The notes under the pieces are model-generated. The model ran no database searches, was not told the origin of the DNA, and was given only the letters and a program-made list of their open reading frames with translations. Source: Candidatus Nealsonbacteria bacterium (GTDB lineage: Bacteria; Patescibacteriota; Minisyncoccia; Minisyncoccales; JANBVM01). From it: a stretch of 64,000 nt of DNA. The DNA lies in NCBI GenBank assembly GCA_026016225.1, contig CP061210.1:517882-581881 (forward strand), read 5' to 3'. Both the position numbers and the translations under genes were made by a program. This document shows, one piece after another, positions 26,583-27,434 of this stretch (its first letter is position 1; each line of letters starts with the position of its first letter).

Positions 26583-27434
26583 TTAGATTGGCATTGTCAG
26601 GACTTTTAACCTTATAATATTCAGGGATTTTTCCTTCCTAAAAATCTTTTCTGTCCCTTTATTATCTTTCTTTCTCGTTCCGTATTTTATATGGTACTCT
26701 ATTCCCCTATTCTGACAGAAATCAATAACTTTATTTGCACGCCCTTGATAAAAAGCCCCACTATCTTTAAATTTGCTTGAGTTTACATTATAATTCAATT
26801 TTCCAAATATAATCTTATCTACAAAAGATATTTCTTTCAAAATTTCTATTAAATTTTGTTTTACTAAATTCGGTGTAGGATAAGGCTCCATACTAACCCA
26901 AGTTTTTAAACCTTTTTCATGTAAAAACTTCAATGATTCTATTCTTTTTTTATAAGAAGCAGAATATGGTTCAAATCTCCTTTTAAAATCTTTATCTAGT
27001 GACACAATAGTGATACCATATTCATTATCTCTTCCATATTTTTCTCTGCTTATTAGAGTTTTTGGATATACTCCTTTTGTTAATACAACACAGCGAATAT
27101 TATCCTTGTTTAATCTCTCAATTATTCGTAAAGTCAAATCTGAAACTTCTGGATATTTATACATAAAAGGATCTGTTGAGAAGCACAAGTGAACAAATCG
27201 AATCTTTTTTTTATATTTAGGAATTTCTTTCTCTAATAATTCTAGAGCATTCGATACGATTTTTGGTTTTATCCAATCAGCATAATCTTTTATGACACCA
27301 CATCTTTTTTTCATCATCATAGCATAACAAGGAAATTTACAACCGTGAGCACAACCTTCAACATGGTTTATACAAAAATCACCATATTCCACGCCACTTT
27401 TATATAATAATGTTTTACGCTTTATCTCTTTCAT
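26583..27434 (-). CDS. Radical-SAM-like protein (SplB/COG1533-like) with variant three-Cys motif CX3CX3C
   Basis: 283 aa. N-terminal CINHVEGCAHGCKFPCYA, one residue longer than canonical CX3CX2C. Downstream FSTDPF..E, VLTKG and two EP-containing segments resemble the SplB-like radical SAM fold. Confidence 0.5.
   Translation of the reverse strand: MKEIKRKTLLYKSGVEYGDFCINHVEGCAHGCKFPCYAMMMKKRCGVIKDYADWIKPKIVSNALELLEKEIPKYKKKIRFVHLCFSTDPFMYKYPEVSDLTLRIIERLNKDNIRCVVLTKGVYPKTLISREKYGRDNEYGITIVSLDKDFKRRFEPYSASYKKRIESLKFLHEKGLKTWVSMEPYPTPNLVKQNLIEILKEISFVDKIIFGKLNYNVNSSKFKDSGAFYQGRANKVIDFCQNRGIEYHIKYGTRKKDNKGTEKIFRKEKSLNIIRLKVLTMPI

Follow-up and report, generated by a model that had tools for sequence, protein, structure and literature searches.

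A radical SAM-like protein of Candidatus Nealsonbacteria belongs to a family with a conserved proline insertion in the second cysteine spacer and a TcmP gene as its usual neighbor

The gene of a radical S-adenosylmethionine (SAM)-like protein was analyzed in a 64,000-nucleotide stretch of DNA from a Candidatus Nealsonbacteria bacterium (assembly GCA_026016225.1, contig CP061210.1, positions 517,882 to 581,881 of the forward strand), which is called the window below. In the presumed cluster-binding loop of this protein, the three cysteines are spaced as CX3CX3C instead of the canonical CX3CX2C, with one extra proline immediately before the third cysteine. The loop variant is genuine, is conserved in a large family, and is homologous to the canonical loop. 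The start codon of the gene lies 12 nucleotides (nt) after the end of a gene on the same strand for TcmP (three-Cys-motif partner protein), and the two genes are adjacent in most related loci. The best overall explanation, which we consider fairly probable, is that a variant radical SAM loop operates in a two-gene module with TcmP and that the module acts on nucleic acid. The features of the window on which this explanation is built are as follows.

26583..27434, minus strand: radical SAM-like gene, 283 amino acids (aa), ATG start (from the list of open reading frames (ORFs), the PF04055 match and GenBank UZE93091.1)
27327..27353, minus strand: predicted cluster-binding loop C28-A-H-G-C32-K-F-P35-C36 (CX3CX3C), from the ORF translation and the alignments
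27330..27332, minus strand: codon of Pro35 (CCT), the inserted residue relative to canonical CX3CX(aromatic)C, seen as a one-column gap in the alignments
27165..27185, minus strand: segment C84-F-S-T-D88-P-F90, aligned with A-C140-T-S-D-I-V of spore photoproduct lyase (SPL), with invariant columns
27447..28517, minus strand: tcmP, 356 aa as an ORF and 351 aa as deposited, TIGR04474

An exact-sequence look-up showed that the protein is UZE93091.1, annotated as a "radical SAM protein" of a Candidatus Nealsonbacteria metagenome-assembled genome (MAG). It matched the Pfam profile PF04055 (Radical_SAM) with 47.0 bits against a gathering threshold of 29.5, and residues 22-200 covered profile positions 1-164 of 166. 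The translated N-terminus reads MKEIKRKTLLYKSGVEYGDFCINHVEG-C28-AHG-C32-KFP-C36-YAMMMKKRCG, in which C28 is encoded at 27351-27353, C32 at 27339-27341 and C36 at 27327-27329. The canonical CX3CX2C spacing is thus exceeded by one proline column (C28-x3-C32-x3-C36). The peptide CAHGCKFPCYA, to which an earlier note on this DNA had drawn attention, occurs exactly in this translation. The range 27299-27350 given for it does contain the motif, except that it starts one codon past the first cysteine, which is a trivial slip.

The earlier note had described the motif as the SplB/COG1533-type GC.HGC.YCYA with one residue inserted between the second and third cysteines, and had made the homology of the third cysteine to the cluster ligand the point to be checked. 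Three comparisons agreed on both. In a MAFFT alignment of 38 relatives (30-95% identity), the Pro-containing form and the canonical form differed by a single column, filled with either Pro or a gap, immediately ahead of the third cysteine. When a profile built from this 38-sequence alignment was searched against the PDB, only SPL was matched (E 2.5e-5), and the two loops were aligned as GCsHgCkYPCYa and GCMGHCHY-CYLQ, with the gap at the proline. This diverse profile alone reached SPL; PDB sequence searches with the single protein and with a profile of close homologues returned nothing relevant. An hhalign comparison with a canonical homologue from Halopiger gave 99.2% probability (E 6e-20), again with the gap at the proline. 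Because the outgroups, SPL and the TcmP-linked Halopiger homologue, are both canonical, the proline appears as a derived one-codon insertion. In a neighbor-joining tree of representatives, which has long terminal branches and no bootstrap and is poorly resolved, canonical and Pro-containing forms were interleaved.

The variant spacing is the rule among relatives of the protein. A search across 5.8 billion proteins gave 5019 matches at E <= 1e-3, and the family comprises more than 5000 clusters at 90% identity. C-x3-C-x3-C was found in all 120 of the best homologue clusters (70-95% identity; NCBI, JGI, ENA and Logan), and C-x3-C-x2-C in none. Without filters, a search of representatives at 50% identity yielded 2258 matches, 135 of them below 1e-30. 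Among the 150 representatives listed, C-x-H-x-C-x-[YF]-P-C was present in 82 and the canonical C-x-H-x-C-x-[YF]-C in 23; the remainder were fragments without the loop region, hence the Pro form accounts for 82 of 105 motif-bearing sequences. The inserted residue was proline in 82 of 82 CX3CX3C representatives, and the aromatic residue before it and the tyrosine after the third cysteine were kept.

Conservation was also apparent from codon usage. At 88 occurrences of the motif, counted on the plus strand of loci L008-L096 (genome, viral, phage-record and other loci, the genome loci having been gathered with a close-homologue alignment and therefore biased towards the Pro-containing form), the proline was encoded by CCT 54 times, CCC 14 times, CCA 13 times and CCG 7 times, and both cysteine codons were in use at each cysteine position. 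The use of four proline codons and of both cysteine codons indicates that selection acts on the residues, that is, at the amino-acid level. A nucleotide-identical gene was found in the Logan assembly of run DRR463595 (L007), possibly from the same sample as the MAG.

In an alignment of 22 sequences, N23, H24, E26, G27, C28, H30, G31, C32, P35, C36, Y37 and A38 were invariant. In the broader 38-sequence alignment, C28, H30, C32, C36, D88, L118, K120, R164 and P184 were invariant. C21, C45 and C84 varied, so that exactly three cysteines are invariant, and there was no fourth.

One exception was nested among the Pro-containing relatives. The protein P0255 has a canonical CX3CX2C loop (CAHGCSYCFA) and is a singleton with a sole exact match:

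L099, 774-1541, plus strand: gene of P0255

No TcmP was found in the 770 nt available upstream of this gene, and small Cys-rich ORFs flank it. The proline was present in 77 of 77 of the other metagenomic relatives of P0255 (43-57% identity) with a readable motif, out of 79 loci. P0255 may thus be a secondary loss of the proline or an assembly error.

Outside the loop, the likeness to SPL continues. In the profile alignment, TSD of SPL aligned with S-T-D88, V-T-K with L-T-K120, and E-P-G...R with E155-P156...R164, and the stretches aligned to TSD, TK and EPG..R are conserved in the family. The C84-F90 segment stands after strand 2, in the position of the GGE-motif segment. F85 stands in place of the H-donor Cys140 of SPL; the C140S and C140A mutant chains that appear in the alignment output confirm this position of SPL, and the family has F, L, S or Y in the column. 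The AlphaFold2 (AF2) model of the protein, of moderate quality (mean predicted local distance difference test score (pLDDT) 68, predicted TM-score 0.71), matched SuiB, LipA, NifB, HydE, SPL and PFL-AE with probability 1.00 in Foldseek, and of the 50 structural matches listed, SPL ranked first by query TM-score (TMq), with 0.53-0.57. As modeled, the fold is radical-SAM-like and consistent with a partial (beta/alpha)6 TIM-barrel.

These features led us to the following interpretation of the loop. The sequence C-x-H-G-C-x-(F/Y)-P-C-Y-A would have arisen from the canonical C-x3-C-x-aromatic-C of the SPL/COG1533/DUF5131 branch by insertion of one proline codon directly before the third cysteine. 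C28, C32 and C36 are the predicted ligands of three irons of a [4Fe-4S] cluster, and since a fourth conserved cysteine is absent, the fourth iron would stay free for SAM. The constrained proline probably lets the longer second spacer still close round the cluster. To judge from the sequence evidence, a site-differentiated, SAM-binding [4Fe-4S] cluster is most likely still present in the loop. The earlier note had left the choice between a genuine variant site and a protein that no longer binds SAM; a functional variant is the side that this evidence favors.

Altered cysteine spacing is tolerated in known radical SAM variants, in which three cysteines also lie on a loop after strand 1, but in the listed variants with the canonical fold the second spacer with its aromatic residue is untouched, whereas it is lengthened here. 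In radical SAM structures, the aromatic residue of CX(aromatic)C contacts the adenine of SAM. The RadicalSAM.org survey describes CX4-, CX5-, CX6-, CX7-, CX8-, CX9- and CX11-CX2C clusters, with the first spacer altered in all. The first spacer is likewise altered and CX2C kept in QueE (CX14CX2C) and HmdB (CX5CX2C). In ThiC (CX2CX4C), both spacers are altered, on a separate C-terminal domain. Full-text literature searches for CX3CX3C and CxxxCxxxC found no radical SAM family so described, save for one mention of NifB. We take this mention to be a typographical error for CX3CX2C. It occurs in PMC9692996, where CX3CX3C is attributed to NifB. The published lists that were consulted have canonical-fold radical SAM enzymes tolerating insertions in the first spacer only and keeping the CX(aromatic)C half, and here is a large family with an invariant proline wedged into that half. 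If SAM is still cleaved, the rules for recognizing and modeling radical SAM sites need to be widened, and the family offers a natural test of how loop geometry controls the positioning of SAM. Should it prove to be an ordinary enzyme with a neutral change in its loop, the finding would add a useful note to the annotation and little else.

We then considered the partner protein. TcmP of the window scored 134.9 bits against TIGR04474 (cutoff 53), and a 100% identical protein bears the name TcmP. Among the models of PADLOC, it hit the candidates PDC-M30A at E 4e-22 and PDC-M41A at E 1e-12, and it had no sequence-level match in the PDB. The best PDB match of its AF2 model (pLDDT 91.7) in Foldseek was Escherichia coli RlmJ (E 2e-7, target TM-score 0.51-0.59), the N6-methyltransferase of A2030 in 23S rRNA (m6A2030). 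TcmP is conserved in a W-S..KD.IL..Y helix at the N-terminus and in the stretches VDGFAGxG (motif I), GSP, FFYxDPxGI (motif-IV-like) and STEVLINF. More variation was seen in the C-terminal winged-helix region, and one homologue has a GMT-like winged helix-turn-helix domain. On the model, TcmP is an RlmJ-like SAM-methyltransferase fold with a C-terminal winged helix. It shares with RlmJ the order of motif I ahead of a DPxx motif IV. Motif IV of RlmJ is DPSY. TcmP differs in having DP(F/Y)G at this place, in the added winged helix, and in its setting on mobile islands with a radical SAM partner.

The pairing of the two genes is widespread. By our own hidden Markov model, TcmP was immediately upstream and in the same orientation in 51 of the 68 genome loci with room for it; TIGR04474 added 5 more, and in 2 further genome loci TcmP lay downstream. 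In metagenome loci with room, it was upstream in 56 of 70 and downstream in one more. Taken together, about 112 of the 138 related loci had TcmP next to the radical SAM gene and reading in the same direction. Two single polypeptides, P0243 (634 aa) and P0245 (592 aa), are putative fusions with an N-terminal TcmP and a C-terminal CX3CX3C radical SAM part. The two partners differ strongly in conservation. Over the same 19 loci, the median identity to the window proteins was 71% for the radical SAM protein and 27% for TcmP, with no correlation between them, and the adjacent TcmP was often only about 25-29% identical where the radical SAM protein was 61-77% identical (L008-L087). This mismatch suggests very unequal evolutionary rates or shuffling of partners.

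In a contig of Patescibacteria (L012), a CcrM-like N6-adenine DNA methyltransferase (E 6e-79, below the equivalog cutoff) takes the place of TcmP:

L012, 1354-2193, plus strand: CcrM-like gene, 5' of a CX3CX3C radical SAM gene (about 2216-3025, within the stop-to-stop frame 2159-3097)

The earlier note had linked the loop to the so-called three-Cys motif. This link holds by way of the neighboring TcmP gene, but the DUF5131 partners of TcmP on the two plasmids that were checked, one of Streptomyces and one of Sinorhizobium, have CX6CX2C. Both are named DUF5131 family proteins by NCBI (PF07505, Gp37/Gp68; RadicalSAM.org Megacluster-5-2, for which CX6CX2C is the variant given), and their loops read GCDRVSSGCDNCYA and GCSIMSAGCTNCYA. 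They resemble the window protein in being radical SAM relatives that adjoin TcmP and have a non-canonical three-Cys loop ending in C-Y-A, but it is the first spacer that is lengthened in them (GCx6CxxCYA) and the second in the window protein. The window protein scored 19.3 bits against PF07505, below the gathering threshold of 28.9, and an hhalign comparison with a Streptomyces DUF5131 protein gave 64% probability (E 6e-5), a weak homology.

The homologue on plasmid pHALXA02 of Halopiger xanaduensis (WP_013881829.1) is clear and has an adjacent TcmP. It differs in its canonical loop GCRHGCKFCYV (CX3CX2C), in the downstream position of TcmP, and in an identity of only about 26% to the window protein. 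A larger "radical SAM protein" gene lies divergently beside this canonical pair (L089, 2470-3816, minus strand). Partners of TcmP therefore show three loop architectures: CX6CX2C, canonical CX3CX2C, and CX3CX3C.

The best NCBIfam matches of the window protein (E 5e-13 to 3e-10) were COG1533-type families of the same superfamily branch, with scores far under their cutoffs: PA0069 (48.7 bits against 360), Rv2578c (39.8 against 430) and radical SAM mobile pair protein B, TIGR04470 (46.0 against 410). Mobile pair protein B likewise belongs to a two-gene mobile unit, which is carried on Bacteroides plasmids, but its partner, pair protein A, is another radical SAM protein and not TcmP. SPL (SplB; PDB 4FHC/4FHD) is the sole solved structure reached by the sequence profile and shares G-C-x3-C-x-Y-(P)-C-Y. 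Its loop is CX3CX2C without the proline; the window protein keeps the aromatic residue and the tyrosine, and the proline separates the aromatic residue from the third cysteine. The H-donor Cys140 of SPL (Geobacillus thermodenitrificans numbering; Cys141 in Bacillus subtilis) is F85 here, which makes the window protein SPL-like but not SPL. SPL acts alone as a repair enzyme in spore formers, whereas the window family has TcmP as its partner and is mobile among Patescibacteria, DPANN archaea and gut metagenomes. Since the protein falls outside SPL, DUF5131 and the named COG1533-type families, and has the superfamily characters except for the spacing, we classify it as a TcmP-partnered radical SAM variant with a lengthened second Cys spacer.

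Close relatives (61-77% identity) were found at 231 places among 185,579 species genomes. The best 80 of the 231 places were mostly in Patescibacteria and DPANN archaea (Woesearchaeota, Nanoarchaeota, Micrarchaeota, Aenigmatarchaeota and Pacearchaeota), with Omnitrophota and Elusimicrobia in addition. Further relatives, with 43-57% identity, were found in metagenomes from gut, bioreactors and sediment, and there were 3 matches among 2.9 million viral contigs. Identities of 61-77% across the divide of bacteria and archaea are higher than is usual between domains and imply horizontal transfer. The distribution is patchy, mobile and mainly cellular.

The flanking genes varied in every locus examined, and restriction-modification, Abi, helicase and integrase genes were frequent among them. 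One related locus has an MmeI-like restriction-modification gene as a neighbor, and another (L005) has Dam- and N4/N6-type methyltransferases together with BsaWI, LexA and RecA. Further neighbors were rve and phage integrases, an AAA_15 ATPase, a MazG-like gene, SLFN-type and DUF559 helicases, and SocA/Panacea. In the window itself, two genes stand directly upstream of tcmP:

28582-31008, minus strand: UvrD-type helicase (624 aa) and AbiV-family abortive-infection protein (175 aa)

The best PADLOC matches of the helicase were GajB models (E 1e-64), and no GajA-like partner was seen. The AbiV protein scored 98.7 bits on TIGR04498 (cutoff 27). The helicase and AbiV look like a small defense island in a Patescibacteria chromosome.

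LexA-like genes (LexA_DNA_bind and Peptidase_S24) were seen in two related loci:

L005, 1369-1944: LexA-like gene, two genes upstream of the module
L093, 4149-4790: LexA-like gene, directly upstream of the module

In L005, a DNA methyltransferase gene lies between the LexA-like gene and TcmP, and recA follows about 3 kb downstream. SOS-linked regulation has been reported for other COG1533 genes, and the LexA-like neighbors may hint at such regulation here.

A phage origin of the module was rejected. Besides the scarcity of matches among viral contigs, the best "phage" record, MT836112.1 (L088, "UNVERIFIED: Bacteriophage sp.", unannotated), encodes an integrase, a helix-turn-helix protein, TcmP, a CX3CX3C radical SAM protein and a type III Mod/Res pair, and looks like an integrative, integrase-bearing defense island rather than a phage genome.

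From these observations, we propose the following role for the module. The radical SAM enzyme would provide the catalysis as the conserved member of a two-gene module, whose genes are sometimes fused and whose TcmP half evolves much faster. TcmP would recognize and present a nucleic-acid target, most plausibly a flipped-out DNA base, and the SPL-like radical SAM partner would then carry out 5'-deoxyadenosyl-radical chemistry on it. The outcome would be a modification or lesion with a self/non-self function, in defense or epigenetics, on mobile islands. The formation of a complex, the targeting role of the variable TcmP, the chemistry on a DNA base and the role in modification or defense are all things we infer. 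The enzyme is the highly conserved half of a widespread mobile module, which in the small genomes of Patescibacteria and DPANN archaea lies amid genes for restriction-modification and abortive infection, and this setting, together with a fast-evolving partner of methyltransferase fold, means that the chemistry may be a new mechanism of nucleic-acid modification or defense.

A bolder version can be offered tentatively. TcmP and the CX3CX3C enzyme might constitute an unrecognized restriction-modification-like two-component system that works by radical chemistry, in which a rapidly diversifying TcmP, with its RlmJ fold and winged helix, gives specificity and an extremely conserved SPL-like subunit gives catalysis, and the re-registered cluster loop of the latter may even change the positioning or cleavage of SAM. 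A new base modification or lesion on DNA would then serve self/non-self discrimination, and the system would move between Patescibacteria, DPANN archaea and gut bacteria. We consider this version rather doubtful.

Several points weigh against the proposed role and against the cluster that it presupposes. The cluster, the binding of SAM and its cleavage are predictions drawn from the sequence. The AF2 model is least sure exactly in the Cys loop (pLDDT below 50 at residues 29-48), for which reason convergence of the three thiols is not assessable from it. CX2C is kept in all the variants listed by RadicalSAM.org, hence a change at this place could disturb SAM binding. Motif IV of TcmP is DP(F/Y)G and not (D/N)PP(Y/F), so TcmP may not methylate. 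About 20% of the loci have no detectable adjacent TcmP, and the radical SAM protein matched no PADLOC model at E <= 0.01. The arguments for a nucleic-acid substrate are analogies, namely the resemblances to SPL and RlmJ, and the gene neighborhoods. The literature search gave no experiment that ties TcmP pairs to defense and no functional study of the pair.

Some of these points would be accounted for by a degenerate radical SAM domain, which we consider unlikely. According to this explanation, the extra residue abolishes the binding or cleavage of SAM, and the protein is a structural Fe-S or other metal subunit, or a regulatory subunit, of TcmP, which would then carry the sole catalytic (methyltransferase) activity. 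The restriction of the variants listed by RadicalSAM.org to changes in the first spacer, the non-canonical architecture of ThiC, the low confidence of the AF2 model in the loop and the retention of the SAM-binding motif I in TcmP all agree with it. Against it, the loop is the most conserved part of the protein, with 12 residues invariant in 22 sequences, and both the aromatic residue before the proline and the tyrosine after the third cysteine are retained. The segments aligned to TSD, TK and EPG..R of SPL are invariant, and the interleaved canonical and Pro-containing forms are both paired with TcmP. The radical SAM partner is, moreover, much better conserved than TcmP, and this would be surprising in a protein that serves simply as a scaffold.

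Another explanation takes the pair as a housekeeping RNA-modification unit, an RlmJ-like methyltransferase and a radical SAM enzyme that act on host rRNA or tRNA. Radical SAM enzymes that modify rRNA or tRNA exist (RlmN, Cfr, MiaB and TYW1), and the best structural match of TcmP is an rRNA methyltransferase, as described above. This explanation, which we regard as quite unlikely, fits poorly with a gene that occurs at 231 places among 185,579 species genomes, with flanks that change at every locus examined and abound in genes for restriction-modification, integrases and Abi, and with the horizontal transfer implied by the high identities across bacteria and archaea. An identity of about 27% for TcmP against about 71% for its partner is also unlike enzymes that act on a fixed rRNA site.

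It is very unlikely, in our view, that the protein is an SPL-type DNA repair enzyme that reverses a UV or radical lesion of DNA with TcmP as the lesion-recognition factor. The idea is suggested by SPL being the sole PDB sequence match and having the top TMq (up to 0.57) among the 50 structural matches listed, by the conserved tyrosine after the third cysteine, by the LexA-like gene upstream of the pair in L005 and L093 with recA nearby in L005, and by the name "DNA repair photolyase" that JGI gives to some members. What speaks against it is the replacement of the H-donor Cys140 by F, L, S or Y across the family, the different cluster motif, and the scores of the COG1533-type NCBIfam models, far under their cutoffs; the mobile, defense-island context and the fast-evolving partner are likewise a misfit for conserved repair. 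Finally, a sequencing or assembly artefact, by which a false codon would have been added to a gene that is really canonical (CX3CX2C), has practically no chance of being correct. The earlier note had named such a single-codon indel as something that would refute its reading. The motif recurs in 120 of 120 close clusters from four sources, in 82 representatives and at 88 places with four different proline codons, which refutes an artefact. Nothing was found in its favor; P0255 does show that single-codon differences occur in this family.

Several other features lie downstream of the pair in the window, whose G+C content is about 32%. A pattern scan showed a pair of hairpins just 3' of the radical SAM stop codon:

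26462..26544, minus strand: two terminator-like hairpins with T runs

To judge from this sequence pattern, the hairpin pair is the probable end of the operon. A gene for a flavodoxin-like protein of 153 aa (23878-24339, minus strand), with weak sub-threshold matches to EFR1-family and flavodoxin models, is found 2.2 kb downstream of the radical SAM gene, and its product is a possible candidate for the reductant. The 257-aa ORF at 24399-25172 (minus strand) had no match in Pfam, NCBIfam, PADLOC or PHROG; it contains a zinc-metalloprotease-like HExxHxxG string (RHETGHLLGL) and several C-terminal cysteines. Between this metalloprotease-like gene and an NAD kinase gene lies a 92-aa ORF (25185-25463, minus strand) composed almost entirely of lysine and glutamate (KEKEKEK-type).

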